A stretch of 64,000 bases of DNA. Origin: a phage. The notes below the pieces were generated by a model. That model saw nothing but the letters and a program-made list of their open reading frames with translations, was not told where the DNA came from and ran no database searches. Positions within the stretch are counted from its first letter, which is position 1. The number at the start of each line of letters is the position of its first letter. Below are positions 11,297 to 49,774 of the stretch, in pieces. The translations under genes and the position numbers were made by a program. The DNA lies in NCBI GenBank assembly GCA_017676145.1, contig GCA_017676145.1_3628.1; one strand, 5' to 3'.

Positions 11297-13726
11297 TTAT
11301 TTATGGTAATAAATAATCCGACGAACACCCTCATCATACCATCCACGCTTCACCAGCTGGTGGTGCATGAGGATTCCCACCAAGTCGCACAACGAGGCAC
11401 CGCCATTTTGCTGATATGCATTAAGCAAAGAGTGTTTAGAGCGGGTCCAAATGGCATGACCGTCAAAAGAGTAGATGAATTTCTTACCTGTTGCTTCCCA
11501 GAATTTCTCCAGATCCTCTTTACGCCCCTTAAGACCTGGGTTGGCATCCCAGAGAGCATCGATTACTCTCTGCCCCAGCTCTGGAGAGATATCCAGCATA
11601 TCTGCAACTTTATCTTTTTGTGCCCCGTACATAACCCCATACGTGACAGGCTTACCATCGTTACGAGACACCTCCCTGCCTGCTACTTTTGTATATGCCT
11701 CAGCATTGTTTTGGTGCGCATCTCCGTTACTTACAACATCATAGTACAGACCGTTGTCGAACTCAAAGGCACCCCAAGCCCCGATAAGCTGCTCTAAGTT
11801 GGACCCGTCAATACCGATCTCAAAGTATCCGGGAGGAACACCCCACAGACTACGCATCTCTTTACCCATAACCACTTTAGGAGATGGTTTAGGCATGTTT
11901 GCACAAATGCTGTGTTTCTGTCTGGAAGTGTTTGTTAATCCAGAACTTTTAGCAGGAAGCTTATGGTCAATCTTCAAACGTGGATGATTAAGAAGACCAG
12001 TATCAACCTTATCCTCCTTGATTGGATCAAGGACCGATCTACGGTTTCGCAAGGATAACCACAAGACGATATCTTTAGCCATCTCTCCGTTCAACTTTTC
12101 AAGATTCGGACATAGGTGTCCAAACGTATCTTTCAGTTGCGGAGAAGTAATAAGCGCTCTGGCTTTTCTACGTATCTTCCCAAACACTTCCTTTTTAATC
12201 CTTTCTGAGTTAGGGAAGCTTCGGAACTTGTGCACGGTTGTCTGAAACTTAGCATCAGTTTTGTTCCAGAAGTTTATAATTAGGTCACAATACTCTGACT
12301 CTAAAAGCTCGTCCATATATGCATATACTCGTGCATCAACATCAGCATCAGGCAGAGCTTTCTTCTTGCTGTCTTTAGTTACATCCTTAGTTCTCCACAT
12401 TGTTGGGAGCCAACCAGCACTAATCAGGTATCGCTTAATGTCGTCCTGATTGCTGATTTTCATAGGTATCTTGCAGTCAGGCATTCGCTTCTGCTGTAGG
12501 TCACTTATTGCCTGATCCATTAGCTCTTTAGGTAAAGGGTGTGGTGTAGAAGTTCCTTTGATATACCCCCTCAAGAAATCAGCCATCTTATCTGGGTCTT
12601 TACAGCCCATCTCTTCACACCATTTTATCCCCATTTTGCTGACATCCCCTGCAGAGGTAAATGCTCGCTTAGGAGGGGCTTTGAACTCTAAAGCGCTCAT
12701 GTCCACAGGATAGCCAAGCTTGTCTTTTAACCATTTCCAACCATTATTGGAGATTGTCCCATCCTGGTTAAACGGCTTTTCAGGGAACTTAGGCCGCTGA
12801 GACATTGATAACTCTTTTAAAGGAAGTTGTGGTTCAACACGATCAGCGATCTCTTTCATCCACGCATCGCAGCGGTCACGTAAAGCAATAGCCCCATCTA
12901 TGTCGAAATACACACCCTGTCGAGCCTGCAGCTCCATCAGGAAATGCTGCAGCATGCCTCGGCGTAATGCATTCTTCCAGGTAATCTTCTTGAATCCTTT
13001 AGGCTTCTCTTTGGCAGGGTCATACATAAAGTTCTGCATGTCAGATTTGCCGTAGAATACACCTTTTGATTCCGCTACCAACTCTTTCCAGAGCAACTCC
13101 TGGATGATAACGTCCTCGAACACACGATCCACATATTTCCACAGTGGAAGCTCACGCCAGTCATCGATTTGAACTTTCTGGTTACCAAGGGCATAGCCCC
13201 ATGCCATAAGGCCATGAGGCCCAACAGGTTGCATTTTCTTGGTAACTGGATTGAATACTGCGTCCGGACAACCTTTTGGCAAAGGGCGGTCAGGCCACAA
13301 GATTCGGCTCATAGCTAACGTATCAAACAGATTAACCTGGTGGTCGTTGATAGTTCCCATGCATTTAGGGTCACGGAACATATCAAAATGAATACCAGAT
13401 AATCTCTCCATCAGCATAAAGTCATAACTGTAGCAGTTATGGCAGTTCAAAGCTGTTGGTGACCAGTCGGAATTGCCTGTAAGCCAACCTTCCAACTCCG
13501 AAAAATCTGCTATGCGGACTTCAAAATCTTTATAAAGAGTTTTCTTTGCTAGAATAAAGTTCTTAGCCTTCTCTACATCCTCTTCAGAGTAGTGTGTGCG
13601 GTCATTTAGAGGAAGGAACAGCATAAAACGGTTCTTATTCAGCTCTTTAAACAAACCGCAGTGATAATAAAGATCTGGATCTTCCAGCAAGCCCGAGGCC
13701 TCCAGATCGAAAGACCACATACTCAT
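11297..13726 (-). CDS. DNA polymerase, family A (T7/Pol I-like) with 3'-5' exonuclease domain
   Basis: 809 aa; N-terminal exo motif FDLEASGL; motif A IGIDGSNLEQ; motif B RNDGKPVTYGVMYGAQ; ATG at 13726 preceded by AAGGAG. Confidence 0.9.
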   Translation of the reverse strand: MSMWSFDLEASGLLEDPDLYYHCGLFKELNKNRFMLFLPLNDRTHYSEEDVEKAKNFILAKKTLYKDFEVRIADFSELEGWLTGNSDWSPTALNCHNCYSYDFMLMERLSGIHFDMFRDPKCMGTINDHQVNLFDTLAMSRILWPDRPLPKGCPDAVFNPVTKKMQPVGPHGLMAWGYALGNQKVQIDDWRELPLWKYVDRVFEDVIIQELLWKELVAESKGVFYGKSDMQNFMYDPAKEKPKGFKKITWKNALRRGMLQHFLMELQARQGVYFDIDGAIALRDRCDAWMKEIADRVEPQLPLKELSMSQRPKFPEKPFNQDGTISNNGWKWLKDKLGYPVDMSALEFKAPPKRAFTSAGDVSKMGIKWCEEMGCKDPDKMADFLRGYIKGTSTPHPLPKELMDQAISDLQQKRMPDCKIPMKISNQDDIKRYLISAGWLPTMWRTKDVTKDSKKKALPDADVDARVYAYMDELLESEYCDLIINFWNKTDAKFQTTVHKFRSFPNSERIKKEVFGKIRRKARALITSPQLKDTFGHLCPNLEKLNGEMAKDIVLWLSLRNRRSVLDPIKEDKVDTGLLNHPRLKIDHKLPAKSSGLTNTSRQKHSICANMPKPSPKVVMGKEMRSLWGVPPGYFEIGIDGSNLEQLIGAWGAFEFDNGLYYDVVSNGDAHQNNAEAYTKVAGREVSRNDGKPVTYGVMYGAQKDKVADMLDISPELGQRVIDALWDANPGLKGRKEDLEKFWEATGKKFIYSFDGHAIWTRSKHSLLNAYQQNGGASLCDLVGILMHHQLVKRGWYDEGVRRIIYYHK

Positions 13727-23761: not shown

Positions 23762-24946
23762 TCAAGCTTTAGCTAAAATGGCGCTAAACTCTTCACCAAA
23801 CTCTTTTACAATCTTCATCAGGTTTGGGTATGCTTTGATCAGCTGAGCAACGATCTTGTCCCGGCCTTTACCAATAAGTAAGGCATTTCCTAGGGCGTTG
23901 GGTTTCATCATCGCCATAAAGACTGAGAATACAAAGTCTCGGTTCTCATCCTTGAAATTTTCCCAAAGGAAATCAAGGAAGTTTGCCACGCAGCTAACAA
24001 GATCTTCGTCTGAGACACTTGCATTTTCCATCATATTCCGAATAGCAATACAACCTTCAGACCCAAGAATCCACAAAATATCTGGCTGCTTAGGACCTAC
24101 ATACTCTTTGCAACCCCCTGCCATAATCCGACCGATTTCTGGCAAGTTTCGTTTCTTGGTGTGGTAGGTCCAGATTTCTACCGCTGCAGTGTGACCAATA
24201 GCACCTTGCAGAAGAACACGAGCCATAGCGTCAGAAATAATACCGCTGTCAAAATCGTGCAGGATGTCAGATGCAGCAACCCAAGATCGCGGTGTAGCAA
24301 AAGATGGACAATTAATCTCAGCCATAGCCTCATAATTATCGATAGCTGATGGAACTCTTTTCAGATATCCAATTACAGAGGAATGCACACCATTAAGGAA
24401 TGCGTAGTCCTCAATAAATACCTCTGCACTGCTTGTAACTTCTACAATGATAAAGCGGTTAGCCAGAGGGGCTTCGAGCGCTGAAAGAACAGCACCATCC
24501 GTAGCACGGTTACCTGCAGCTACAAAAACAGAGCCCTTAGGAAATGCATAGGTGCCGCACTTGTGGTCGAGCATAATTTGCATTGCAACCTTCTGCAGGT
24601 AGTTATCTGCATGAGTAAGCTCATCCAGAAAGATAATTCCGCTCCAGTCCGAGTCTGCAGGCCAAAATTCTGGAATTGCAAACACTGTGCGTGTAGTTCC
24701 ATCTGCCTCTACAGGGATAGGTAGTCCAGACAAGTCAGCAGGATCTTTATCTGACAGCCGCACGTCAACCAGGTTGTCATCTCGCTCACCGAACATATTA
24801 TCAGCAATCTGCTTCATCACCTGGCTCTTCCCCACACCCATCGGTCCTAAAATCAGGACAGATCGGTTATGACGCTGGGCAAATTGAATAATAGCTGGCA
24901 ACTCGCGGACAGTGATTTGACCACTTTCGAATACGTTTCTTGACAT
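23762..24946 (-). CDS. MoxR-family AAA+ ATPase (CbbQ/NorQ/CobS-like)
   Basis: 394 aa; Walker A LILGPMGVGKSQ; Walker B IIFLDELTHAD; sensor AAGNR; single AAA module of MoxR size. Confidence 0.8.
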   Translation of the reverse strand: MSRNVFESGQITVRELPAIIQFAQRHNRSVLILGPMGVGKSQVMKQIADNMFGERDDNLVDVRLSDKDPADLSGLPIPVEADGTTRTVFAIPEFWPADSDWSGIIFLDELTHADNYLQKVAMQIMLDHKCGTYAFPKGSVFVAAGNRATDGAVLSALEAPLANRFIIVEVTSSAEVFIEDYAFLNGVHSSVIGYLKRVPSAIDNYEAMAEINCPSFATPRSWVAASDILHDFDSGIISDAMARVLLQGAIGHTAAVEIWTYHTKKRNLPEIGRIMAGGCKEYVGPKQPDILWILGSEGCIAIRNMMENASVSDEDLVSCVANFLDFLWENFKDENRDFVFSVFMAMMKPNALGNALLIGKGRDKIVAQLIKAYPNLMKIVKEFGEEFSAILAKA

Positions 24947-26547: not shown

Positions 26548-27443
26548 ATCTCCGCGTAAATTAAACTGGAATCAGTATACTTCTTTAACGGGTAAATATC
26601 CTGTCCATAGATGCCGTCATTAAACACCTCATCTACCCAAAGGCTACACTTATATCCCATCATTTCTAAAACGCCCATCTCTTCTTCGGTAAACTTATCA
26701 CCACTCTTGCAAGATGTCAATACCTCATTCTGCACTCTTGCTACCTCGAAGCGGTTATTGGCAATATCACTATTGGCAATCAAATACTCACCTAAAGGGT
26801 GTGCAGCATTAAAGATGCACAGTGGACGGTTGACGTAATAGTCTCCCGGTGTATAAAAATTGTTGAGATCCTTCACCAGAACATTCTTATCAGTCACTTC
26901 ATTTATAACATCATGCATATCACACATCTTTATATGTTTGAGGATTCCATCCCCCATCACAAAATAAAAACTTGCTGAGACACTCTCGGCATAGATCTTA
27001 CTAGATCCGTTGTAGTTGTATTTTACGCGAATGCTCACAGGGGTTTTGCCTGTCGCGTTAGCCATCATCCAAAGGAACGGAAGTTCAAACTTCTCCTCTG
27101 AGGAAACAAAAGGTGAAGTTGCCAGAGATCGGAAACCACCAGAGAAGTTGAAAGTTACAGAGCCGCTCCGGCGATATGATACCGCATATTCTACTTTTAT
27201 ATCGACATAGCCGTTGGAGTAAGTGTGGCCTCCATTATCCAGATATGTCCACTTATCAGATCCGGATACCAGCCTACGCTCAATAACCTTCATTACTATA
27301 GGAATTAGCGGGTTGGTACAAACCGATTTTGAAGTAGCTTTATCATCCAAAGCCTCGTAAATTGCAGAAAGGATATCGCCTGCTGAGAGATTAGTTGTGA
27401 TATCTTGTTTCCATCGAGTGCTAAAGCTGTTAAGATTTGCCAT
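26544..27443 (-). CDS. Hypothetical protein
   Basis: ATG at 27443 (MANLNSF...) preceded by GGAG; first gene of the minus-strand block next to the divergent promoters. Confidence 0.55.
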   Translation of the reverse strand: MANLNSFSTRWKQDITTNLSAGDILSAIYEALDDKATSKSVCTNPLIPIVMKVIERRLVSGSDKWTYLDNGGHTYSNGYVDIKVEYAVSYRRSGSVTFNFSGGFRSLATSPFVSSEEKFELPFLWMMANATGKTPVSIRVKYNYNGSSKIYAESVSASFYFVMGDGILKHIKMCDMHDVINEVTDKNVLVKDLNNFYTPGDYYVNRPLCIFNAAHPLGEYLIANSDIANNRFEVARVQNEVLTSCKSGDKFTEEEMGVLEMMGYKCSLWVDEVFNDGIYGQDIYPLKKYTDSSLIYAEI

Positions 27444-27483
27444 GATTAAGTACTCCTGTGTTCGTTTTCTTTCGAATGGGTGC

Positions 27484-27512
27484 ACTATATCGTGGATTTA
27501 GAGTAAAGTCAA
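27484..27512 (-). promoter_or_regulatory. Sigma70-like promoter (minus strand) TTGACT-N17-TATAGT
   Basis: Reverse complement of 27484-27512 reads TTGACT, 17-bp spacer, TATAGT; about 40 bp upstream of the ATG at 27443. Confidence 0.5.
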
Positions 27513-27525
27513 CACGTTTTTGAGG

Positions 27526-27554
27526 TTGACATATTCCCAGGCACTTGATAAGAT
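27526..27554 (+). promoter_or_regulatory. Sigma70-like promoter (plus strand) TTGACA-N17-TAAGAT
   Basis: TTGACA at 27526-27531, 17-bp spacer, TAAGAT at 27549-27554; about 30 bp upstream of the ATG at 27586; back-to-back with the minus-strand promoter. Confidence 0.5.
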
Positions 27555-27585
27555 TTCTCCACCTACAGAGCACAAGAGACAACTC

Positions 27586-28575
27586 ATGAATCTTGAAAAA
27601 TATTATACACCAGAAGAGTTAGAGCGCCTGCTCAAAAAATACAGACGCAAACAAAATAATGCACGGAAACGAGATATAGAGTTCAACCTGTCGTGGGAAG
27701 AATACCTCCTATTTGGTAAAAAACTTTTAGGAGAGGGGGTATGCGACTATACCCTTATACCTTTCGACATGCACACAGATGAAAACGGGCTGGGGAATCC
27801 TTTCTACCCATCTCTGGAGCGGATAGATGATGAAGGTCCTTACGCAATTGATAACTGTTGTGTGGTAGGATTGAGGTGTAACTCTCTGAAAGACTGCCTG
27901 GTAGATAAAAAGACCGCAATCTTGATTAAAGACAAAACTGATCGAAAAATTGTCCAGCAGATGATGCTCCACCTGAGCGAAGAGCGCATGGAGAAATTGA
28001 AAGGTGATTACACTTTTGAAGATTTCATCTTGCAATATGGGACGGAAGAGGATAAACTGGCACTCTTTGACGAAGAATGGGAGGAAGATATGTCACCAAT
28101 GCAGGATTTTAAAAACTTCATGGCTAACCGTGGAGCCAACAAGCACATTTCTGACATTGTAAACGAGCCTGCAGCAGAGGAGATTGAAGAAGTGGAGCAA
28201 CAGGCTTACGAAGAGGAAAAAGAGCCTCAAGGGGACGAAGAAGAGCTTACAGAAGAGGTTCCTGCACTGCCTGACGATGTTGAGATTGCCAAAGCTTACA
28301 CTTTCTATTGTCAGACGTTCTACGATGCAGGTATGAAAGTTGATCTGTCATTCAGTCAATTTAAGAGCACGTACATTCGAAAATGTTGTGCTTTAACTGG
28401 TGAGCGTCTCGGGGTCGGACTTAAACCACTATTAGTGACCGACTGGAATAAAGGTTTCACCAAGGGCAACTTTATGGTAGTATCTCCAATTATGGAGAAG
28501 GCTATGACAGACCTTATGAAGACCACTCGCATGACAATGACCGAGTTGGCTGGTATTTTCAAGCACGTTAAATAA
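27586..28575 (+). CDS. Protein with duplicated degenerate HNH-like module and acidic linker
   Basis: Two related segments (CDYTLIPFD...PSLERIDDEGPYAIDNCCVV and CALTGERLG...LLVTDWNKGFTKGNFMVV) flank an E/D-rich linker; the PSLERIDD...Y..DN motif echoes the 4875-5498 product; ATG at 27586 preferred over the TTG at 27520. Confidence 0.45.
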   Translation: MNLEKYYTPEELERLLKKYRRKQNNARKRDIEFNLSWEEYLLFGKKLLGEGVCDYTLIPFDMHTDENGLGNPFYPSLERIDDEGPYAIDNCCVVGLRCNSLKDCLVDKKTAILIKDKTDRKIVQQMMLHLSEERMEKLKGDYTFEDFILQYGTEEDKLALFDEEWEEDMSPMQDFKNFMANRGANKHISDIVNEPAAEEIEEVEQQAYEEEKEPQGDEEELTEEVPALPDDVEIAKAYTFYCQTFYDAGMKVDLSFSQFKSTYIRKCCALTGERLGVGLKPLLVTDWNKGFTKGNFMVVSPIMEKAMTDLMKTTRMTMTELAGIFKHVK

Positions 28576-28608
28576 TGACAGGGGCCAATGGCCCCTTCTG
28601 GAGTTTTA

Positions 28609-30069
28609 ATGGATAGCAGAAGTTCAGAAATCATTGCCGCACAAAAAGATGACGCCTTGCGAATGCTGCAGGCAGCACGCATGTATCTTCTTGAAAAGCT
28701 GCCGTTTTATGGCACACTGTTGTCAGGGTTGCAGTTCGTAGAAAACCACACATGGTGCTCCACTATGGCAACAGACCATAAACGCATTTATTACAGCCCT
28801 GAGTTCATTATGGGGTTGGCGGATGAGCGCAAAACCATTCTTAAAGCATCTTTGACTGACAAGCAGTTTGAGATGGCTGAGGTTTTCTATTCCCCAAAAT
28901 CTGTGAAAGAGGTGGCATTTCTTCTATCGCATGAGGTGGGGCATATTATCTGTGATCATCTGGTCCGTGGCAAAAGTTTTGAGCCGGAGCTGTTCAATAT
29001 TGCCTGTGATCATGTTATCAACACAGGTCTTGTGGTTGACTTTAGCAAGCCTCCTTGTGTTTTCTTCCCGAAGGGGAAAAGCACTACGTTTGTAAAAGGT
29101 AAGCCTTTTGGCTTCTTAGCTAGTTGCTACTGTGACATGAGGTTCCATGGATGGATTGCTGAGAACGTCTATGCGGTTCTTGATAAGCAAAGAGATCAGA
29201 ATAGCGGTAAAAGTAAGAACGGTAAAGGCGAGAGCTCTCAAGGAGATAAACGACAAACCGATGATCACATGAGTGGTAACGGTGGCACTAGCGATGATCT
29301 TGGAAAGGCGATGGGGTATGATCAGCCACAACCAGTGATCAGTCAATCTGATAAAGATCAAGCCATGCAGGACTCTGGTGACATGTTGGAAGCAGCAATG
29401 CAGGCTTCCGGAGGTCGTTGCCCTGAGGCTGTGCGTGAGTTTGTCAAGAACAGAGGTAAGCCTGTAATCAATTATATAGACATCATTAAGCAACGTATGC
29501 TGTCTAAACGAAAGGCTGAACTAACCTATAGAAAACCCGGTCGCCGATCTGGGTCTTTGACCAGCACAATGCGAAAAGTTGGGGCTATAAACAAGAATCA
29601 GCACGTTGTTGTTCCAGGTCGTAATCCGGAAAACACTATAGATATTGTGGTGGCTCTAGACGTTTCTGGATCGATCTCCCAAAGAACTTTAAAGAAAATG
29701 TTCAATGAGATCACTGGGTTGTGCAATCTGTATAAAGAGTTCAAGGTTACGATGTTCTGCTGGTCAACCGAGGTTGGAGAGGTTAAAGTATACACTCGTG
29801 GGAACATCGACGAGATGATCAACTATGAGGTCCACTCAACATGGGGAACAACAGCCGCTTGCGTGTTCGAGTATCTGGACGCTAACATACCAAATGCAAA
29901 AGATGTCATCGTCCTGACCGACCTATACTTTGAGCATAACTTTGAACAAAAGGCTGTTGACAACAAGTGGAAAAAGTACGATACTCTATGGGTCCTCACT
30001 GAAGGGTATAATAAAAATTATATCCCGAGCTTTGGGAAAACTGTGGAATTAATCGAGTACGCTAAGTAA
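28609..30069 (+). CDS. vWA-domain protein with N-terminal HExxH metallopeptidase-like domain
   Basis: HExxH zinc-binding motif LSHEVGHIICDH; C-terminal vWA MIDAS motif VVALDVSGSIS; ATG at 28609 with GGAG RBS preferred over the track start at 28588. Confidence 0.7.
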   Translation: MDSRSSEIIAAQKDDALRMLQAARMYLLEKLPFYGTLLSGLQFVENHTWCSTMATDHKRIYYSPEFIMGLADERKTILKASLTDKQFEMAEVFYSPKSVKEVAFLLSHEVGHIICDHLVRGKSFEPELFNIACDHVINTGLVVDFSKPPCVFFPKGKSTTFVKGKPFGFLASCYCDMRFHGWIAENVYAVLDKQRDQNSGKSKNGKGESSQGDKRQTDDHMSGNGGTSDDLGKAMGYDQPQPVISQSDKDQAMQDSGDMLEAAMQASGGRCPEAVREFVKNRGKPVINYIDIIKQRMLSKRKAELTYRKPGRRSGSLTSTMRKVGAINKNQHVVVPGRNPENTIDIVVALDVSGSISQRTLKKMFNEITGLCNLYKEFKVTMFCWSTEVGEVKVYTRGNIDEMINYEVHSTWGTTAACVFEYLDANIPNAKDVIVLTDLYFEHNFEQKAVDNKWKKYDTLWVLTEGYNKNYIPSFGKTVELIEYAK

Positions 30070-30084
30070 GAGAGGGGGTTATTT

Positions 30085-30348
30085 ATGGCAACAGAGTTAA
30101 AATTTGCATCAAACCGTAAAACTAAGAAATATCTGTCCTCAGTGGCTCCAGGCACTGTGGTGATGTTTGTTGATGAACTTGGGGATGTGAATACAGCACT
30201 TGTTGTAAAATCACATCCTGCAAACATATATGTTGGGGTATTTGACCTGTTCAGAAAAGTGTTTGTAGAACTACCCCACAGTTTAGTTGTTACAGAAATG
30301 GATGCCTGCATAGAAATTCTTGGCGAAGTTATGGTGGAGGAACAATAA
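30085..30348 (+). CDS. Hypothetical protein, tandem paralog 1 of 4
   Basis: 87 aa; GAGGGGG RBS; same length and K-rich N-terminus as the next two copies. Confidence 0.6.
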   Translation: MATELKFASNRKTKKYLSSVAPGTVVMFVDELGDVNTALVVKSHPANIYVGVFDLFRKVFVELPHSLVVTEMDACIEILGEVMVEEQ

Positions 30349-30611
30349 TGGCTACTAGCATTGTATTCAATTCTAAGGTGAAGAACAAAAAGCGTGCAGA
30401 CAGCTTTCCGTGTGGGACCGTGGTAAGTTGCGACGGAGACGGCATTCAAAACATAGTTATGATTGTCAAAACAGGAGAACATTGTGTGTGGGGGTTCGAT
30501 TTAGAAAATAATGAGTTGTACGATCTGCCACCAAACATGAAAGTTACAGAGCTTGACACCAAAATTACCATCCTTGGAGAGACAAGCTATTCAAAAGAAG
30601 GAGGAGAATAA
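30348..30611 (+). CDS. Hypothetical protein, tandem paralog 2 of 4
   Basis: 87 aa; ATG overlaps the upstream stop (translational coupling). Confidence 0.6.
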   Translation: MATSIVFNSKVKNKKRADSFPCGTVVSCDGDGIQNIVMIVKTGEHCVWGFDLENNELYDLPPNMKVTELDTKITILGETSYSKEGGE

Positions 30612-30874
30612 TGACCACAAAAATCACTATCGCAGAACCGAAAGCTAACACTCAACCTATCGAAAAGTTTAAATGCGGGGAGGTGGTAACATTTACACCA
30701 GATAATGAAGATGCTAAGATTTTCGCCATGGTCACAGCTGAGTGGATGTGTGACAATACCACACAGGTTCTGCGTTTTGACACCTATCTTACAGATGAAA
30801 TCAGGAACGATAAGATCGTGACTGGTGTGGATACTGAGATTATTTTCTACAAGAGCTTTTTAGAGGGTTTCTGA
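30611..30874 (+). CDS. Hypothetical protein, tandem paralog 3 of 4
   Basis: 87 aa; ATG overlaps the upstream stop. Confidence 0.6.
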   Translation: MTTKITIAEPKANTQPIEKFKCGEVVTFTPDNEDAKIFAMVTAEWMCDNTTQVLRFDTYLTDEIRNDKIVTGVDTEIIFYKSFLEGF

Positions 30875-30875
30875 T

Positions 30876-31109
30876 ATGGCAAAAATTCGTAAATTATCCA
30901 GCAATCAAGTTGTGAAAGACTTTGAATCTGGAGAGATTCTGTATGTTCGTGATGCAGATGACGAAGGTGAAGATCTTGTTATGCTAGTAGGACACGCTGA
31001 AGACGGATGCATACAGGCTGTTTTTCTTGAAACAGCTATGGTGCACTGGATAGAGCTGGACCTGAAAGCACGAAAACCTAAAGCAGAGATCCTGATTTAC
31101 GAAGATTAA
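30876..31109 (+). CDS. Hypothetical protein, tandem paralog 4 of 4
   Basis: 77 aa; similar layout, acidic core DADDEGEDLVMLVGHAEDG. Confidence 0.55.
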   Translation: MAKIRKLSSNQVVKDFESGEILYVRDADDEGEDLVMLVGHAEDGCIQAVFLETAMVHWIELDLKARKPKAEILIYED

Positions 31110-31124
31110 CAAAAGGAGAGAGCC

Positions 31125-31574
31125 GTGTTGAGCAAACGTGAATGCGACAGCATCAGCCTGAATTCTTATAAAAAACAATGGTTTGGGGTAGAAGTTTGCC
31201 GACTGCGGCTAGGCTCCTACCTGAACTTCGTTTATTACGAGAGCGACAGTCGTATAGTTTCTTATGAAGTGTTCTACACTAAGAATACATTCGAACTACG
31301 CCGTAAAGTGGACGGAGGGAGAACTACCACCCAGAATAATTGGGAAACTATTCTGCCCCCGGATGTTATAGGTAGTCCCCTGAATGTATCTGAAGATGAA
31401 AATCTTATGGTTCATGCTATGATGGGACTTGACAGCTTAGAGCTGGCGATCTATGATATGTCCATCGAAGCAGTTAAGCTGGACTACATCGAAAACACTT
31501 TAGAGGAAGGTATCAAGAAGTTTCTCGGTGAGAAATTGAAAGCCCACTTTCATAAGGAGCTATATCTGTTATGA
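31125..31574 (+). CDS. Hypothetical protein
   Basis: 149 aa; GTG start preceded by AAGGAG. Confidence 0.5.
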   Translation: MLSKRECDSISLNSYKKQWFGVEVCRLRLGSYLNFVYYESDSRIVSYEVFYTKNTFELRRKVDGGRTTTQNNWETILPPDVIGSPLNVSEDENLMVHAMMGLDSLELAIYDMSIEAVKLDYIENTLEEGIKKFLGEKLKAHFHKELYLL

Positions 31575-31816
31575 AGACCCGTAAAGAACGTAACAAGATT
31601 TTACCTGGCGCTCTCGAACACATGATGAAGTGCAGATCTATCTGGCACTCTGCCAAGGAGGGGCAGCATGTGGTCGTGGTTAGTGATAATGCCAACCCAT
31701 TCGGTGATTATGTCACCATGATGACTCCATACATCCGCGACGGTGTTGTGGAAGTGGTTCCTTATAGCGGTCTGCATGAGAGGCATTTTGAGAGCACTTT
31801 GCTAGTGGAGCTATAA
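31571..31816 (+). CDS. Hypothetical protein
   Basis: 81-aa ORF; start overlaps the upstream stop. Confidence 0.45.
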   Translation: MKTRKERNKILPGALEHMMKCRSIWHSAKEGQHVVVVSDNANPFGDYVTMMTPYIRDGVVEVVPYSGLHERHFESTLLVEL

Positions 31817-31818
31817 TT

Positions 31819-32385
31819 ATGGCGGTCAATGTGTCTTACAACACAGGAAAGCTTGACAGGGACATTGGGTGTCTTGTCCTTTCAGATACAGAGGAGTATT
31901 GGGGTTATGGGTTGCTGTCAGACCCACACCCGAGCAATCTTGTATCAACAGTGCTATATCGCTACGACCCTGTGCCAACGGTACACGACAAAGATATTCA
32001 CGACCTTCGGATCAAGTGCCTGGAAGATCTTCTGAACAATGGCTGCAACGATCTGCAGGTAGCCAAGGAGAAGCTTACAAACATCCACAAGGAGGAGGTG
32101 ATGAGCACCCTCAGTAAGAGGTCAGTGCACAAAAAGATGATGCTGAACTTTGCAATGGGTATCTACATGGATGGGTATAAGGGTGGGGATCCGATCCTCA
32201 AGCTTCGCTGCCCAACACTGTGGGAAAGAGTGGTTGACAGTAAGGACGGTACTGCTCTTCTTGAGCTCCACACTTCGGGTTGGATATGGAAGTATGTGGA
32301 CGGATACCCTCTGTGGGCATGTGGAGCTGGCGAGTTTGTTGACAGACCTAGCGCGGTGGTGGACTTGCTATTGCAGTTTGAATAA
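31819..32385 (+). CDS. Hypothetical protein
   Basis: 188 aa; GGAG RBS. Confidence 0.5.
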   Translation: MAVNVSYNTGKLDRDIGCLVLSDTEEYWGYGLLSDPHPSNLVSTVLYRYDPVPTVHDKDIHDLRIKCLEDLLNNGCNDLQVAKEKLTNIHKEEVMSTLSKRSVHKKMMLNFAMGIYMDGYKGGDPILKLRCPTLWERVVDSKDGTALLELHTSGWIWKYVDGYPLWACGAGEFVDRPSAVVDLLLQFE

Positions 32386-32441
32386 AAGGTGAGTTATAAG
32401 GCATTTATACACTTATCAACAATACAACAGGAGAGACTGAG

Positions 32442-32717
32442 ATGACGAAAGAAGAGGCAGATGTATTAGACTTTGCATTAGAAGCTACGCAGGAGGCTTT
32501 GGTGTTGGCTTGGAAAATGAACCAGCGTGCTGCAGAATGCAACCGCCGCATCAATGAGATTCTAGGCATGTCTATGTATGATTTCACTATGCATGCTGGA
32601 GAGATTCCTGAATTAACTGCTGAGATGAATGATCTTGACAATAAAATTAATATCATTCTGAAGACAGCAGAAACAACTCACCAAACCGCCCGTAAATTTA
32701 TCAACGAGAAGGTGTGA
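32442..32717 (+). CDS. Hypothetical protein
   Basis: 91 aa; GGAGAG RBS; looks helical (judged by eye). Confidence 0.45.
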   Translation: MTKEEADVLDFALEATQEALVLAWKMNQRAAECNRRINEILGMSMYDFTMHAGEIPELTAEMNDLDNKINIILKTAETTHQTARKFINEKV

Positions 32718-33193
32718 ATATGGACTACAGCTACTGCGGAGAAGAAGTACCTTTTAACTACAGCAATCTCACCACGAGCAATCCATATGAGACTCGTCAC
32801 GGCACACACATCATTGCTATTGACTTTGATGGAACGTTTAATGCGAGCCCTTTCATCTTCTCCCGCCTTATTAAGGACCTGAAGAAGGAAGGGTGGACAG
32901 TCTATCTTGTGACTTTCCGATTCATAACTCAAGACAATGTGGACATCGAATACTGGCGCAAGGAGCTAGATGTTGGAGTGTTTTATACTGGAGGTGTTCA
33001 GAAGGCTGCTTATCTGGCTCAGTTTGATATCTACCCGGACATCTGGGTTGATGATTCTCCAGCTTGCATTCCAGCCAAGAATCAGCTAGAGTTTGCAATG
33101 AAGGAGATCAAGTATAAGTCTGACGCTAAACGTAACGGATGGCCCTTTATTATTGAAGATTACCCAGATCCTGAACCGGAGAAAGAGCCATGA
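32714..33193 (+). CDS. HAD-superfamily phosphatase (possibly a 5'(3')-deoxyribonucleotidase-like enzyme)
   Basis: HAD motif I IIAIDFDGTF (DxDGT); motif IV-like IWVDDSP; 159 aa. Confidence 0.55.
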   Translation: MNMDYSYCGEEVPFNYSNLTTSNPYETRHGTHIIAIDFDGTFNASPFIFSRLIKDLKKEGWTVYLVTFRFITQDNVDIEYWRKELDVGVFYTGGVQKAAYLAQFDIYPDIWVDDSPACIPAKNQLEFAMKEIKYKSDAKRNGWPFIIEDYPDPEPEKEP

Positions 33194-33360
33194 AACGAAG
33201 ATACCATTACTTGATGTGGAAGTTATATCAGGGTGCTGCTAAAACTTATCGCACCGTGTTTGGTAATGACAATCACTATATTGTGTTACACCTTGCCGCC
33301 ATTAAGCATCACAATGAGTGGATTCGTGCAATCGTAATAGGTGACAAAGACTTTAAGTAA
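33190..33360 (+). CDS. Small hypothetical protein (56 aa)
   Basis: ATGA overlap with the HAD gene stop (translational coupling); MKRRYHYLMWKLYQG...; not in the 60-aa ORF track. Confidence 0.3.
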   Translation: MKRRYHYLMWKLYQGAAKTYRTVFGNDNHYIVLHLAAIKHHNEWIRAIVIGDKDFK

Positions 33361-33411
33361 GGTATGCCTCAAAAACGTAATAGTGTGGATTTCTAAATGG
33401 AGACTGATTAA

Positions 33412-33792
33412 ATGTGCAAGTGTAAATCCTATAATTGGAAAGTGAAAGGTGCCAAGCATCAAAATGTTATCGTTGATGTGCCTAAAAAGCTCCGTGACGG
33501 CAAAAAACGTGTGTGCCTTGGTAAGTGCATGGCTAAACCTATCATGAGCTTGTGGGCAGCAGGATTGAAGACTCTAAACTGCTGCTGTGGTCATAACAAA
33601 GATGCTCCAAGCATCATTATCCCAGAGGATGCAGACCCTAAAGCTTATGCCAAAATACTGACTCGCTACCCCAGCACCTTTCTGATCGGAAAATGGTGTC
33701 ACGATGAACTTCAATGGTGGATAGCATACGGCAGCATAGGTACTGCTGTTGGCTTTCCAGCTTTGTCAGAGCGCTACGTCAAAGTGTCATAA
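33412..33792 (+). CDS. Cysteine-rich hypothetical protein
   Basis: 126 aa; MCKCK...CLGKC...NCCCGHN, likely metal-binding. Confidence 0.45.
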   Translation: MCKCKSYNWKVKGAKHQNVIVDVPKKLRDGKKRVCLGKCMAKPIMSLWAAGLKTLNCCCGHNKDAPSIIIPEDADPKAYAKILTRYPSTFLIGKWCHDELQWWIAYGSIGTAVGFPALSERYVKVS

Positions 33793-33894
33793 TCGATTTT
33801 AAGGCCTCAAACGAGGCCTGTGCCTTCATAAACTTCCTACCTATGTGCGATTACCCTTCTGAATAAAATACCCTCTCAAATTGCTTAAAATTAA

Positions 33895-33923
33895 GCTTGA
33901 CACTAACACCAGATTTATATATG
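33895..33923 (+). promoter_or_regulatory. Sigma70-like promoter (plus strand) TTGACA-N17-TATGAT
   Basis: TTGACA at 33895-33900, 17-bp spacer, TATGAT; follows the hairpin aggcctc-aaac-gaggcct (33802-33819); precedes GAGGAG RBS and the ATG at 33956. Confidence 0.4.
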
Positions 33924-33955
33924 ATTATCTCACCAACCCAACAGAGGAGATTGTC

Positions 33956-34363
33956 ATGGATAATCTTGCAAGTGTAAACGTAGAAATTGTTAAACTAAAG
34001 TTCTTGGGCTTTCGAGACCCTAATTCTCTAACAGCTATACTGATGGATACCCACTTCACACCGGGGAAAGAGTACACTGCCTTCCGTTATACTCACGGAG
34101 ATCACGAATCGGCCTATAGTGTGAATACAAACCTCGGTGAGGGATATTTCATCAGAGATATCACAGATCACTTGTGGGGTATGTGGGAATTGGTGGGAGA
34201 AGAGAATAAATCCCTTCCCAAAGAGATTTGGGTGCACACCTTCCACACAGGGAAGTTTGGTGGAACGGAGCATAAATCTATCCACTATGATGAAGGAAGT
34301 GCCATCAAGCAACAAGCTGTGCTTGGCGGATCTGTAGAAAAATTTGTTAAATGCGAGGACTGA
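33956..34363 (+). CDS. Hypothetical protein
   Basis: ATG at 33956 (MDNLASV...) with GAGGAG RBS, preferred over the track start at 33881. Confidence 0.5.
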   Translation: MDNLASVNVEIVKLKFLGFRDPNSLTAILMDTHFTPGKEYTAFRYTHGDHESAYSVNTNLGEGYFIRDITDHLWGMWELVGEENKSLPKEIWVHTFHTGKFGGTEHKSIHYDEGSAIKQQAVLGGSVEKFVKCED

Positions 34364-34366
34364 GAA

Positions 34367-34567
34367 ATGGCTGATTTTTGTAAAGATTGCTCTGAAGAGT
34401 TGTTTGGCTTTGACTGCAAAGATTTGGAAGGTCTGATCACTGAGGATCAGTGGAAGGAAGGCTATGCAGCACCTGTTATTTGTGAAGGTTGTGGCTATAC
34501 CTATGTTGACCATAAAGGTAAGCGCGTCAAGCCGTCTGAAGATGGGGCATGTTGGGAGTATTACTAA
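34367..34567 (+). CDS. Small zinc-ribbon protein
   Basis: 66 aa; CKDC...CEGCG. Confidence 0.45.
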   Translation: MADFCKDCSEELFGFDCKDLEGLITEDQWKEGYAAPVICEGCGYTYVDHKGKRVKPSEDGACWEYY

Positions 34568-34571
34568 CTAT

Positions 34572-34606
34572 AAAAAGAAAGGGGCCGTTTGGCCCCTTTT
34601 TTATTT
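34572..34606. terminator. Bidirectional rho-independent terminator between convergent plus and minus blocks
   Basis: Hairpin ggggcc-gttt-ggcccc (34581-34596) flanked by aaaaagaaa upstream and tttttt downstream; lies between the plus-strand stop (34567) and the minus-strand stop (34616). Confidence 0.8.
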
Positions 34607-34615
34607 ACCCCCTTG

Positions 34616-37600
34616 TTAACGAGAAAAGGTTGCGTAGGCTTCTAGACGATACTGCTGGTCACCAGGGAACATAACACCTATAGAGGCTGTCCCTAGAATC
34701 CTGCCTTCCTTTCCAGACTCCATTCTGAACCCTACCCATCCTGAACTCCTTGCAGCATCGATGTTGTCTCTATACCCGAAAGTGGCAAGATCGTCAACAC
34801 CAGCCCCAAACAGCAACTGAAGCTGACTTCTCGGAAGCCCTATAATTTCAGGAATATACGCACCAAAGTACACCATCTGCCCTACCTTAGGACCGCTGCC
34901 GTACTCCATCGGCTTGCTTGTAGAGAAAGTCTTCATACCAGAAGTCCCTGCCGGATTAGGATATGCCCCGTTTGTTGCTGTACCTATCCACATTCTCCAC
35001 TGTGGTGCCATCTGTTTGACAGTAAAAGATGTTGAAGACGTTTTGCGCCCTGCATCATCTGTAACTACAAACTTTATAGTGACATTCCCAGTAGCTTTAA
35101 ATGTTACCAGCCCTGTGGTAGCATCCACTGTTGCAATGTTGGTATTACTACTTTCCCAAGTCTTTCTGATTCCTGGCACATTGGAAGGGGTAATAGAAGG
35201 TTCCTGCATCTGCAGTTTACCACCTACAATCCCTATCCCGTTTCCTGGATTATACAACGCACCAACCTCGTCTACAATGTTACCTGCCTTGAGGCTGTAC
35301 TTTTTAGAGAAGTTGTAAGTGCCGTTATATGTGTGTGTCCCTGAGAAGGTTACATCTGCTTTTCCGTAAGAGATGCAAACCAAAGCATACTTCCTGTCAG
35401 GCAACGGTGCCCCAGTTTCTGGGTGAGTTTTACCCACCTGAAACACACTCGGGTCAGTGGAGTCTTGGCTATCACTAACGGAGTTTGGACCCCCCATCAG
35501 TTGTGACAGGCAATTCCTTACCCATGTCCAGTTATTATCGCTGGAGAAGTCCACAGTTAAATCAAACACAACCCACTCATTTGGCTTCCACACAGGTGTT
35601 GCAATGGACTTGCCTACACCGCCTCCTTGGAGTGTTGCCGACTGTTCAGTGATCAGGGCCGCGTAGGCCAGAGTTCCTAAACTCAGAGTTTGGCTTGCTG
35701 TCCTCACTACCTTAGAATCAGCATCTGTGAAGTTGTTGATGATCTGGAATGTGCCATAAGTGTTTTTACAGGTAATTCTGGCGTTCAGCGTGTCAATCTT
35801 CCTCACATCTGCCATAGCAGTGTTAGACACAGAGAAGTCAGAAGCTTTAGCTGAGTTTGCCGCAACAGCAGGATCAACGTTAAGAGTTGCGTTGAACTGA
35901 CAAGCTGGGGTAACCAGCAGCTTGTTATCACCTATTTGCTTCCATGAAACACTTTGAACAGGGAGATTCCATTTAATACCTGAGAAAACTTTAGCAACCC
36001 TTGGCCCCAGAGCTCCAGTCCTGGTGTCTTTACAGCACATGGACATGGTGATCGTTGACGGAGTGGCCTGACCAAACAATTGCTGTGCTTTTGCAGAGGA
36101 CATGGTGTAGAAATTGTCCTTAACAAACTCATCAGCCGCCAATGATCCGTCAGATCTCCACCATTGCACCTGGTACCCTGTCTTATCCCAGCCACCGACC
36201 TGCTTCAGGTCCTCCCAGGAGATTTCCAGATCCCCAGTGGTAGGGTTGATTGCAGCAGTTCCTGGTGTTCCAGAGGACCATAATGGGATATCGAACCATG
36301 CTGGTTTAACAGATTGTACTGCGTTCGGTCCTATTGCAGCAGCAAGTTGCTGACCCATCAACACACGAGAATCTTTTACCAAGCCCCATTCAATCATGGA
36401 CCCAGAGTAGCCTTCTTTCTTATAGGCCGAAGATCCGTTCAAATGGATAAGCCTGCTGCAGTCGAAACCATACGCCCCGCCACCGTTAGGATCTGCAAAG
36501 TTAGTTATGATTCTATCCCTTATATTTTTCCATGCCCTGCCTCCAATCTCGTAGTCATGGTCATAACATCTCTGCAGCGTTGTCCAGCAAATGATTGCCA
36601 TTCTTCTGCCACCAGTAAACCCGAAAGCGCCGTCATTCAACTCTTTCCACAGATAGCAGTTAGTTGCCCACATAGCTCTGTGGATATTGAACCAGTTTAT
36701 AGACTTAGCAGAATTGTCCCACTGAGTTCCCGGTAATTCAGGCCACACTGCATTAACCAACATGTCTTCTGTTCCTGCATCAACTAAGAACCCTCTCACC
36801 TTTTTACCCATACCTGCCCTGTCTTTAGCAATCCAATTGCCAAACAGTCTCAGTTTTGGACCATAAACGACATCCTCTGGGTGCTCAAAAGAAACATACT
36901 TTAAGTAGATTGTTGGGTCACCGTAGGTGCCATCACAAACACTTTTGTGCATGTTTTCGCCAAGATCTAGACGAAGCCCTGTCACCACTTTAGACGTGTC
37001 GGTGAATTTGTCTGTTAAATCAAATTCATACCACCACCATCCACCACCAAGCATAAATTTCTTGCATCGAGCATTGTCTGTATCAGATATTCTCTTATCC
37101 CCTGCAAAAGGTGAATCAGCAAACTGATAATGCAGAGCAGTCTCGAATAAATGTGTTGAGGTTCCGTTTTCTGCAAGAACTTGCTTACCTATTAAGTCGC
37201 ACTTAATGATCATCACAACACGTTTGTACCCGTTTGTTACTGGAACTTGCATAGACATGGATGTCCCATCCATGTTTGATCTCAGCACGGTCATGACGAT
37301 ATAAGGGTCAACGGCATTGCCCAGAGTTTCAGGACCAGGGATTATCTTGTACTTCTTAACCTGCCCCATAAACCTGTCACTGGCGTAAGTTGCAGCCTCG
37401 AAGCAAGATCCTCCATTAGGTAGTTCGCCAGGACCCCAGAAAAATGCGCCATAACAGTTATAAAACCACTTGTTAGGATCGTATTTGTTCTTGAAGGTCT
37501 GAACCTCGTTAGCCTGTTTTGTCAAGAAAACCTGAGTATCTGTGAAGATTGCAGGATTCACTCTTGCCTGTCGATCAGCATATCCAGGTTGGTTAAACCA

Positions 37601-49705: not shown

Positions 49706-49774
49706 GTCACTCCTCCGGTATGAAAATCTCTACAAGGTATTTTACCAAATTTTGTAACAATAGTCAATCTGAGC

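Follow-up and report, generated by a model that had tools for sequence, protein, structure and literature searches.

The gene 11–26 unit of a Vequintavirus phage as a conserved, mosaic rightward operon probably read by host RNA polymerase

In coliphage rV5, genes 11–26 form a transcription unit that has P011 and P025 as promoters and t026/t027 as terminators (Kropinski et al. 2013, Virol J 10:76). These elements and P010 appear in the paper and in its supplementary tables, and its authors reported sigma70-like promoters spread genome-wide (Kropinski et al. 2013). Two further described systems bear on proteins of this unit. T4 Srd is described as stimulating RNase E (Qi 2015, as cited in PMC7430671); it was earlier called an anti-sigma 'decoy'. 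N4 gp24 and gp25 belong to the core gene set of N4-like phages, and in N4 itself they are middle transcripts.

The block studied here, at 27526–34606, is the published rV5 unit already described in 2013. The window (the whole 64 kb stretch of DNA analysed) belongs to a Vequintavirus, an rV5-like coliphage, and 122 phage records match the block at 90–97% identity. It consists of 15 tightly packed plus-strand genes located between the tail-fibre module and the replication module. Its features, together with two leftward features outside it, are as follows.

23762–24946, minus strand: AAA+ ATPase of the N4 gp24 type, with Walker A/B motifs, named MoxR by the depositors; outside the block
27512–27484, minus strand: leftward promoter (rV5 P010), TTGACT-17-TATAGT, back-to-back with the block promoter
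27526–27554, plus strand: rightward block promoter (rV5 P011), TTGACA-17-TAAGAT, with a TG extended −10
27586–28575, plus strand: g1, 329 aa, T4 Srd homolog with an acidic linker and a second, C-terminal Srd-core-like domain
28580–28596, plus strand: GC-rich hairpin in the g1/g2 gap, fold of −14 kcal/mol
28609–30069, plus strand: g2, 486 aa, N4 gp25-type protein, zincin (HEVGH) plus VWA domain with full MIDAS
30085–31109, plus strand: g3, g4 and g5 (87 aa each) and g6 (77 aa), tandem acidic all-beta paralogs, genus-restricted
31125–31574, plus strand: g7, 149 aa, conserved, directly 3' of the g2 homolog in other genera
31571–32717, plus strand: g8 (81 aa), g9 (188 aa) and g10 (91 aa), soluble
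32714–33193, plus strand: g11, 159 aa, HAD-like phosphatase candidate, motifs DxDxT, T, K, DD
33190–33360, plus strand: g12, 56 aa, basic
33412–33792, plus strand: g13, 126 aa, Cys-rich, motif CxCxSYN…DxC…CCCGH
33802–33819, plus strand: hairpin 3' of g13, −14.3 kcal/mol, without a T-run behind it
33897–33925, plus strand: internal promoter (rV5 P025), TTGACA-17-TATGAT
33956–34363, plus strand: g14, 135 aa, exchangeable cargo slot behind P025
34367–34567, plus strand: g15, 66 aa, zinc-ribbon-like, CxxC…CxxC
34578–34599, both strands: bidirectional intrinsic terminator (rV5 t026/t027), common to the convergent tail-fibre operon

Positive GC skew occurs solely at ~27–34 kb within the window, and the minus strand carries every long ORF outside 27520–34567, in agreement with annotated relatives. 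These observations uphold the claim of an earlier note that the block is the only plus-strand unit in 64 kb, and its estimate of about 15 genes agrees with our count. Intergenic gaps range from −4 to +15 nt with four exceptions (33, 56, 51 and 163 nt). Shine-Dalgarno sequences of the GGAG/GAGG type lie directly 5' of most starts, and are weak or absent ahead of g1, g4, g6 and g11. The products contain no transmembrane segments and have a mostly acidic pI, and most are small and soluble. The GC content of the block equals that of its flanks, and no integrase, transposase, homing endonuclease or other mobility gene was found at its borders.

The unit is present in 108 of the 122 matching Vequintavirus records, and a relative with ~70% DNA identity keeps all 15 genes in the same order. 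A backbone of g1, g2, g7 and g11, together with the promoter, is common to Mydovirus and Seunavirus, indicating that the unit is ancestral and not inserted. Of the earlier description, "inserted between" the replication and structural modules, the position thus holds, between tail-fibre and replication genes, and the insertion does not. Asked whether the block is variable or conserved, comparative genomics returned a mostly conserved order and content with variable slots at g3/g4 and g14. The g14 gene is replaced by two smaller genes in nom and locus L016 (109 and 72 aa) and in APCEc02 (56 and 72 aa as annotated). Genes g5–g6, g13 and g15 form gene-sized patches of 89–94% DNA identity against a background of 60–74%.

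A promoter consensus scan was unenriched overall (22 sites, compared with 16.3 ± 4.8 expected from shuffled sequence), and support for the named promoters comes from intergenic placement and conservation, not from scan enrichment. In Vequintavirus, Mydovirus and Seunavirus alike, a TTGACA-17-xATAAT sequence precedes the g1 start by 60–67 nt and is kept although the intergenic DNA around it has diverged; an equivalent of P011 occupies the same position in four other Vequintavirinae loci. The −35 box of P025 is retained before differing cargo genes, and the hairpin trailing g13 is conserved even where g14 is replaced. Between g1 and g2, the hairpin that the annotation of phage Murica calls a terminator is possibly an attenuator. 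At the 3' end, the folding energy of the terminator hairpin is −19.7 kcal/mol for the plus strand (z = −4.4) and −18.0 kcal/mol for the minus strand, and on both a T-run comes after the hairpin. Both sigma70-like promoters that had been proposed were found, one exactly at 27526 and the other at 33897, 2 nt from the position given (33895), as was the strong bidirectional terminator placed at 34572–34606. The promoters of the block are of the sigma70 type, the kind used for early genes. Minus-strand copies of a putative late-promoter motif lie upstream of structural genes (49747 and 55258) and inside a structural ORF (59714); the plus strand of the block has none. Promoter type is the sole basis for an 'early/middle' assignment, since our literature search found no transcriptome or time course for any Vequintavirinae phage.

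The first gene, g1, is related to T4 Srd (hhalign probability 96.9%, E = 1.7e-10; BLASTP E = 1e-7), the alignment being limited to the N-terminal ~140 residues. Its C-terminal domain matches Srd residues 30–80 (E = 0.002), and the N- and C-domains match each other in hhalign (P = 0.002). It also matches PHROGs 3118, 1400 and 4592. Judged from sequence, this kinship with a host mRNA-decay factor supports a part for g1 in host takeover.

The second gene, g2, matches DUF2201_N (E = 6e-28) and DUF2201 (E = 4e-11) in Pfam, both above cut-offs, and carries HEVGH at residues 108–112 and the MIDAS motif DVSGS at residues 351–355, bearing out its earlier designation as a HExxH-vWA protein. From Vequintavirus to N4-like phages there is no variation at residues H108, E109, H112, D351, S353, S355, T414 and D438, and 619 phage records match g2. 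The ATPase–VWA genes are adjacent in N4-like, jumbo and Acinetobacter phages. The window ATPase, which lies 2.6 kb from the promoter region on the strand opposite to g2, is homologous to the ATPases whose genes immediately precede gp25-like genes in ABPH49, phAPEC6 and St11Ph5. It falls below every Pfam MoxR/AAA cut-off, and its PDB matches are confined to the P-loop region. Both the depositors and Iyer et al. 2021 give N4 gp24-type ATPases the name MoxR. We infer that the window ATPase is the partner of g2 and works with it. Homologs of g7 were found in Mydovirus, Seunavirus and ABPH49 by phmmer and HMM searches.

Among the small proteins, g3 and g4 show clear kinship (37% identity, E = 7e-11), g5 is a significant member of the array (E = 0.0019) and g6 a marginal one (E = 0.082). 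The array had been described as four tandem 87-aa paralogs; the array stands, with three proteins of 87 aa and a marginal fourth of 77 aa. The g3–g6 fold appears to be an SH3/Tudor-like beta-barrel. HAD motifs I–IV are present in g11, and D37, D39, T41, T67, K97, D113 and D114 are invariant among its homologs, which include proteins of Mydovirus and Seunavirus; the earlier assignment as a HAD phosphatase is retained as a candidate, with no Pfam or PDB sequence match. The previously noted Cys-rich and zinc-ribbon proteins correspond to g13 and g15. The g13 family is large and unnamed (945 representative clusters), with no matching Pfam, PDB or annotated PHROG family, and g15 is 57–72% identical to ORFs of Felixounavirus and T5-like phages, which are unrelated virulent enterophages. 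Most of the small proteins (g7–g10, g12 and g14) yielded no functional clue in homology searches.

We considered three other explanations. That g1 is an HNH/endonuclease VII-type nuclease acting on DNA, either still working or inactivated not long ago, is suggested by its database labels: the matching PHROGs are named 'HNH endonuclease', 'endonuclease' and 'endonuclease VII' (E = 1e-10 to 1e-111), RefSeq names it 'HNH endonuclease', and many database records call it a nuclease of this type. However, searches for the Pfam HNH and Endonuclease_7 families in g1, in each of its domains alone, in T4 Srd and in distant homologs all came back empty, even at E ≤ 10. A profile comparison with T4 endonuclease VII, its sequence entered by hand, gave no match, and g1 has no PDB match. 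Its core, by alignment S-L-E-R-I-D…N…N-x-L-K, lacks an invariant histidine or paired CxxC. A nuclease is thus very improbable, and from the earlier label "duplicated degenerate HNH-like" we keep the duplicated domain and replace HNH with Srd homology. A virion-assembly module made up of g2, g7 and perhaps the beta-barrel paralogs, in which the ATPase and the VWA–zincin protein chaperone and trim structural proteins, would tie the block functionally to the adjoining tail-fibre genes, with which it shares a terminator. Iyer et al. 2021 propose such a role for the ATPase and metallopeptidase–vWA pair in jumbo phages, the phAPEC6 ATPase homolog was detected in virions, and PHROG labels g7 'tail protein'. 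This label is unsupported, since none of gp11–26 is marked as detected by virion mass spectrometry in rV5 supplementary Table S3. Moreover, the N4 pair is transcribed in the middle phase alongside replication genes, the pair lies among nucleotide-metabolism genes in N4-like and jumbo phages, and the block has sigma70-type promoters and no putative late motif. We regard such a module as unlikely.

Equally doubtful is a horizontally acquired accessory island for host shutdown or defence inhibition, dispensable and variable among relatives. In its favour are the small, acidic nature of most products, the variable g3/g4 and g14 slots, the patches of high DNA identity, the occurrence of g15 in Felixounavirus and T5-like phages and the kinship of g1 with a host-takeover factor. 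Outside the genus, g3–g10 and g12–g14 were unmatched by tblastn, except for the C-terminal end of g14, although g7 homologs do surface there by phmmer/HMM. Against the island are the gene order and content kept across the genus and in the ~70%-identity relative, the backbone and promoter shared with other genera, the unshifted GC content and the borders free of mobility genes. The gene for the partner of g2 lies beyond the block, and N4-like phages have the pair as a core function. No block protein was matched by NCBIfam or by PADLOC, a library of defence rather than anti-defence systems, and our literature search found no paper tying block genes to defence escape. The block is an old conserved operon and not a freshly inserted anti-defence island. 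The interpretation as a host-takeover or anti-defence island is therefore partly supported: takeover by the promoters of early-gene type, the Srd homolog, the small acidic proteins and the variable slots and patches, and the anti-defence island not, given the conservation and the lack of PADLOC and NCBIfam matches.

We favour, with a probability of about 0.7, the reading of the block as the rightward arm of a conserved back-to-back sigma70-type promoter pair, a mosaic rV5 operon read by host RNA polymerase. The polymerase would start at P011 and again at the internal P025, 15 translationally coupled genes would be read into soluble, mostly acidic proteins, and transcription would halt at the hairpin where the convergent tail-fibre operon ends as well. 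In content, the operon is a mosaic with three layers. The first is the ancestral backbone common to other Vequintavirinae genera: g1, predicted to speed host mRNA decay by stimulating RNase E; g2 and g7, which with the leftward-arm AAA+ ATPase may form a remodelling/proteolysis machine of the N4 gp24/gp25 type; and g11, a candidate HAD-like phosphatase. The second comprises the genus-restricted small proteins, including the putative SH3/Tudor-like paralog array inserted between g2 and g7, which presumably bind host or phage factors. The third is a terminal promoter-plus-cargo unit, in which g14 is exchangeable and the zinc-ribbon gene g15 is widely shared.

Comparison with T4 Srd shows that g1 residues 7–146 align with Srd residues 3–136, and that both share the motif C-x-Y-[ST]…S-L-E-R-[IF]-D…G-Y…N and lie within units starting at a sigma70-type promoter. 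In contrast to Srd (248 aa), g1 is longer (329 aa), only 24% identical, and adds the acidic linker and a second Srd core at the C-terminus. The likeness to N4 gp24/gp25 lies in the same two-domain architecture of g2, the invariant HExxH and MIDAS residues and the homologous ATPases. Unlike in the N4 pair, the ATPase lies on the opposite arm of a divergent promoter here, in Seunavirus and in Mydovirus, the VWA gene has an additional conserved gene (g7) after it, and in Vequintavirus four beta-barrel paralogs sit between the two.

The g14–g15 end resembles morons and the early small-ORF arrays of T5-like and FelixO1-like phages in combining promoter, exchangeable cargo and terminator, and shares g15 with those phages (57–72% identity). 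It is not a prophage moron, however, but the end of a longer conserved operon. The closest likeness is to rV5, in which the unit lies between gene 10 and the gene for the 1878-aa Ig-like tail-fibre protein gp27, with the same gene order, the same P011, P025 and bidirectional t026/t027, and, in close relatives, proteins 90–100% identical. The present phage differs in having g3 and g4 where rV5 has a single 85-aa gene, in an intact g2, annotated as two ORFs (12 and 13) in rV5, and in promoter P020, which is listed for rV5 and was not found in our scan of this phage.

The plus-strand block at 27526-34606 is the sole plus-strand unit in the 64 kb of the window, as the earlier note had proposed: positive GC skew is confined to ~27–34 kb, and the long ORFs outside 27520–34567 all lie on the minus strand. 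The expected gene number of about 15 was also correct, with 15 tightly packed plus-strand genes (g1–g15) separated by gaps of −4 to +15 nt and four exceptions of 33, 56, 51 and 163 nt. Most of these genes are preceded by a GGAG/GAGG-type Shine-Dalgarno sequence, which is weak or absent for g1, g4, g6 and g11. The encoded proteins are mostly acidic, and none of the 15 has a hydrophobic segment of membrane-helix length. Annotated relatives contain a plus-strand run of 15–16 genes between two minus-strand flanks, one with genes for DNA polymerase, primase/helicase, rIIA/rIIB and a 'MoxR ATPase', and the other with tail-fibre and baseplate genes. The DNA polymerase gene of phage EmilHeitz (L003 1098-4717) is annotated as two joined pieces around a homing endonuclease; the window polymerase ORF (11297–13726, 809 aa), assigned by where it lies in the replication module, appears unbroken.

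The following signals bound and subdivide the block, the promoters being those of the promoter scan:
27512, minus strand: promoter P010, back to back with P011
27526, plus strand: promoter P011, TTGACA-17-TAAGAT with a TG extension
33897, plus strand: internal promoter P025, TTGACA-17-TATGAT
34578–34599, both strands: hairpin of terminator t026/t027, folding at −19.7 kcal/mol (plus) and −18.0 kcal/mol (minus)

The scan for the sigma70 consensus returned 22 sites, compared with 16.3 ± 4.8 in shuffled sequence, which is no overall enrichment, and the weight of the named promoters therefore lies in their placement and conservation. In two further Vequintavirus phages, in Mydovirus KB57 and in Seunavirus EspYZU14, the g1 start is preceded at 60–67 nt by a TTGACA-17-xATAAT site, and the intergenic DNA around it otherwise differs between these phages. 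The P025 −35 box is retained even where a different gene lies behind it. On these grounds the unit does have sigma70-like promoters of its own at 27526 and 33897. Two 11-of-12 consensus matches, at 31429-31457 (inside g7) and 31788-31817 (end of g8), score above P011; lying within coding sequence, they are indistinguishable from chance. The bidirectional terminator was confirmed as well, the hairpin being stable on both strands with a T-run behind it on each; on the plus strand it has z = −4.4, and none of 200 shuffles folds as well. A putative late motif, T[AG]GTA[AT]AATA (TGGTAAAATA-like), has two minus-strand copies, at 49747 and 55258, just 5' of the structural genes ending at 49705 and 55218, with a third match to this putative rV5 late-promoter motif at 59714, minus strand, within a structural ORF. 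No copy was found on the plus strand of the block, and Rfam gave no RNA family between 26.5 and 35.5 kb at E ≤ 1.

The unit is real but already known. For phage rV5, four transcription units were put forward by Kropinski et al. (2013), 'genes 11–26' among them; the authors also described gp11 as a probable Srd homolog, and listed P010 (−), P011 (+), P020 (+), P025 (+) and t026/t027 in their supplementary tables. The rV5 promoter and terminator sequences given there are identical to those in the window, and the rV5 gene table corresponds to g1–g15; rV5's P020, 5' of g10, was not picked up in the window by the promoter scan. The block has the matching gene order, lies between a gene 10 homolog and an Ig-like tail-fibre gene, and carries the divergent P010/P011 pair, the internal P025 and the bidirectional t026/t027. 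In the same supplementary material, the virion mass-spectrometry mark is absent for all of gp11–26. With the unit, its promoters, its terminator and its Srd-like first gene all described for rV5 in 2013, the finding in itself is of little weight. What novelty remains lies in the split ATPase/VWA/g7 system, the array of beta-barrel proteins and the g13 family, which has no name.

A megablast search with 27000–35000 matched 122 phage records, and in 108 of them the match, at 90–97% identity, extends over 80% or more of the query; the records with checked taxonomy are Vequintavirus (rV5-like E. coli myophages). Sixteen matching GenBank records are named 'Campylobacter phage' (host: C. jejuni), one of them (phage C12, MG065635.1) being 92.8% identical over its full length; probably these host labels are wrong, or the sequences are contaminating coliphages. 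Across Vequintavirus the block proteins are 80–100% identical, as are those of the flanks, apart from the g3/g4 and g14 slots. Locus L016, a phage contig within an E. coli assembly, has g1 at 56% identity and retains 15 of 15 genes in order. Against a DNA background of 60–74% identity to the window, this contig has three much closer patches:
L016 12932-13430, window 30611-31109: g5 and g6, 89% identical
L016 15651-16031, window 33412-33792: g13, 93.7% identical
L016 16821-17021, window 34367-34567: g15, 92.5% identical

These gene-sized patches suggest recent recombination between lineages. Across genera only g1, g2, g7 and g11 are kept, with order and arm unchanged. A tblastn search with g3–g15 joined as one query matched 1,042 records, and outside the genus only g11 and g14C–g15 were matched; because ~900 of these records fall outside the genus and g15 is matched by most of those sampled, the ~900 are likely to be g15 matches. 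The genus-wide presence, together with the cross-genus backbone of g1, g2, g7 and g11, argues that the unit is ancestral.

The earlier note had read the block as an inserted accessory island of the host-takeover or anti-defence type, variable or absent in relatives. Patchy presence among close relatives was not observed: the block is found throughout the genus and in a relative at ~70% DNA identity, and the variability is confined to the g3/g4 and g14 slots. Its GC content (0.425–0.453, vs 0.42–0.47 in the flanks) shows no compositional anomaly, no integrase or transposase is found at its borders, and the partner of g2 lies outside it. These results speak against an inserted accessory island. 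Nor is an anti-defence role supported, as scans of the block proteins with PADLOC, a defence-system library, and NCBIfam gave no match. A literature search by BASEL gene tags yielded nothing on block genes; it returned only Bas52_0087, an SSB-like DRT10 trigger encoded outside the block. PDB sequence searches with g1, g2, g7, g9, g11 and g14 singly, and PDB profile searches with g1, g11 and g13 alignments, gave nothing usable. The opposite possibility, a uniform housekeeping operon, is not the case either, since small genes turn over on a stable backbone. The earlier interpretation is thus partly supported: a takeover element and exchangeable small genes have support, and insertion and anti-defence lack it.

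The first gene, g1 (27586–28575), is homologous to T4 Srd. Using a 13-sequence alignment, hhalign aligned g1 residues 7–146 with Srd residues 3–136 (probability 96.9%, E = 1.7e-10), and BLASTP gave E = 1e-7; g1 also matches PHROGs 1400 and 4592. Its C-terminal domain (residues 253–299) matches Srd residues 30–80 (E = 0.002), and the N- and C-domains align with each other in hhalign (P = 0.002, 56 columns), so that the proposed duplication is moderately supported. The two-domain layout is found in 202 phage records, 115-kb Aeromonas phages among them. The accompanying description of g1 as degenerate HNH-like was discarded. Even at a threshold of E ≤ 10, Pfam HNH and Endonuclease_7 were matched neither by g1 or its two domains taken apart nor by T4 Srd or more distant homologs, and the g1 profile did not match T4 endonuclease VII. 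The g1 alignment has no invariant His, and the HNH designation was traced to PHROG labels only. T4 Srd binds the N-terminal half of RNase E and stimulates the enzyme, which accelerates the decay of host mRNA (Qi et al. 2015, cited in PMC7430671); these are features of T4 Srd, to which g1 is likened by sequence homology.

Many database entries start g1 upstream of the ATG at 27586, as 346-aa forms, and the TTG ORF in the window is 351 aa (27520-27585 region). An upstream start would fall inside P011, and the shorter form of 325–329 aa is therefore consistent. The gap behind g1 holds one further element:
28580-28596: GC-rich hairpin GGGGCC-AAU-GGCCCC, −14 kcal/mol, filling the 33-nt g1/g2 gap

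This hairpin covers an in-frame upstream ATG of g2 (28588) and is annotated as a terminator in phage Murica. It could act as an attenuator of read-through after the Srd-like gene.

At the other end of the block, the P025–g14 slot combines a conserved promoter with exchangeable cargo, which is potentially useful to specialists. There, g14 is replaced by two smaller genes, of 109 and 72 aa in nom and L016, and of 56 and 72 aa as annotated in APCEc02. The last gene, g15, encodes a CxxC…CxxC protein. Small ORFs at 57–72% identity to it occur in Felixounavirus and T5-like phages, where, in one locus per group, they lie in early-type arrays among uncharacterised small genes:
window 34367-34567: g15, 66-aa zinc-ribbon-like protein
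L006 6004-6204: counterpart in another phage
L007 5001-5201: counterpart in another phage

The proposed HAD phosphatase corresponds to g11 (32714–33193). HAD motifs I (DxDxT), II (S/T), III (K) and IV (DD) are present, and homologs at 44% identity keep D37, D39, T41, T67, K97, D113 and D114 without exception. No HAD family or solved HAD structure was matched in Pfam, NCBIfam or PDB sequences; g11 is a HAD-like phosphatase candidate. A profile search with g13 (33412–33792) against 1.84 billion representatives returned, at E ≤ 1e-3, 945 clusters represented at 50% identity. Most members have ~100 aa, with the invariant motif CxCxSYN…DxC…W…T..CCCGH; in cultured phages they occur mostly in Vequintavirus, and in a few Aeromonas, Caulobacter, Vibrio and Lactococcus phages. 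The family had no Pfam, PDB or annotated PHROG match. A scan of its longer members for a Pfam identity yielded only an unrelated methyltransferase fusion, and the structure model of g13 was too poor for use. g13 defines a large unnamed Cys-rich protein family of at least 945 clusters, potentially useful to specialists.

The array g3–g6 (30085–31109) consists of paralogs. g3 and g4 are 37% identical (E = 7e-11); an HMM of these two placed g5 top among 738 ORFs (E = 0.0019), and an HMM of g3–g5 ranked g6 first at a marginal E = 0.082. g8 was rejected as a fifth paralog (E = 21–50). A profile search of 5.8 billion proteins found 28 proteins, and those placed on long contigs are all on ~120–142-kb contigs of Vequintavirus size. 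The AlphaFold2 model of g4 (pLDDT 77) is eight-stranded and all-beta, a candidate SH3/Tudor/KOW-like small beta-barrel, and BFVD gave weak matches to many uncharacterised phage proteins of 70–90 aa, N4 Gp21 included. rV5 and nom have one 85-aa gene in place of g3 and g4, the nom copy being ~40% identical to each.

Alongside the anatomy, homologies, conservation and mosaic patches, which are direct observations, a mechanism can be proposed. Host sigma70 RNA polymerase would transcribe the unit from P011 and P025 in the early or middle phase. No time-course data emerged from our literature search on transcriptomes of Vequintavirus or Vequintavirinae; the rV5 authors described sigma70-like promoters as spread over the entire genome. 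g1 may act on RNase E as Srd does, g2, with g7, may cooperate with an ATPase encoded in the leftward arm, and the small acidic proteins may bind host or phage factors. A bolder proposal, which we regard as a long shot, is that g3–g6 and g7 are interchangeable adaptors or clients of an AAA+/VWA/zincin machine that remodels or cleaves host proteins early, the split across the divergent promoter co-expressing both halves. It draws on the position of the array, wedged between g2 and g7, on the allelic replacement of g3/g4, and on the g5–g6 recombination patches. If true, it would provide the first proposed substrates for the widespread but uncharacterised N4 gp24/gp25 core pair.

The HExxH–vWA protein reported in the block was borne out as g2 (28609–30069), with intact motifs and both Pfam domains above their cut-offs: DUF2201_N (E = 6e-28, 98.6 bits vs 23.2) and the VWA-like DUF2201 (E = 4e-11, 43.7 bits vs 26.4). 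Homologs were found by tblastn in 619 phage records, at 43–47% identity in other Vequintavirinae genera, ~27% in the jumbo phages K64-1 and phAPEC6, and ~22% in N4-like phages, where the homolog is named 'N4 gp25-like'. In a comparison of six sequences, from Vequintavirus to N4-like phages, H108, E109, H112 and H117 as well as the MIDAS residues D351, S353, S355, T414 and D438 (DxSxS…T…D) are invariant. The proposed partner lies outside the block:
23762–24946, minus strand: AAA+ ATPase, Walker A GPMGVGKS, Walker B IIFLDE

Homologs of this ATPase are encoded directly 5' of the gp25-like gene in three phages: ABPH49 of Acinetobacter (E = 1e-72), the jumbo phage phAPEC6 (E = 2e-32) and the N4-like St11Ph5 (gp24, E = 5e-19). 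'MoxR' is the name given by depositors and by Iyer et al.; in Pfam, AAA_5 (E = 0.006) and bpMoxR (E = 0.008) are both below cut-off, and PDB matches are limited to the P-loop region. A g7 (31125–31574) homolog lies directly 3' of the g2 homolog in Mydovirus, Seunavirus and ABPH49, and in Vequintavirus the paralog array is inserted between the two.

The 14 core genes of N4-like phages include N4 gp24 and gp25, which in N4 are carried on middle transcripts. Iyer et al. (2021) described the pair of an ATPase and a metallopeptidase–vWA protein in jumbo phages and proposed a virion-assembly chaperone role, and the phAPEC6 ATPase has been detected in virions. As a core function, the ATPase–VWA–zincin pair is common to N4-like, jumbo and rV5-like phages, a point potentially useful to specialists. 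The adjacent, co-oriented ATPase gene expected of a MoxR–VWA system is not seen beside g2, the window's ATPase gene being on the opposite strand. The two genes adjoin each other in ABPH49, phAPEC6 and St11Ph5, and it is from these relatives that the partnership is inferred. The block does not stand on its own. The rV5-like variant of the gp24/gp25-type pair has a conserved third gene, g7, and its halves have moved to opposite arms of one promoter region. In ABPH49 (L012 3263-12079), the ATPase, VWA and g7-like genes follow one another on one strand, and an Srd-like gene is on the other, a partition that is the reverse of the Vequintavirus arrangement. This gene order implies that the region around the divergent promoters underwent an ancient inversion, and the two arms have accordingly exchanged genes in the course of evolution.
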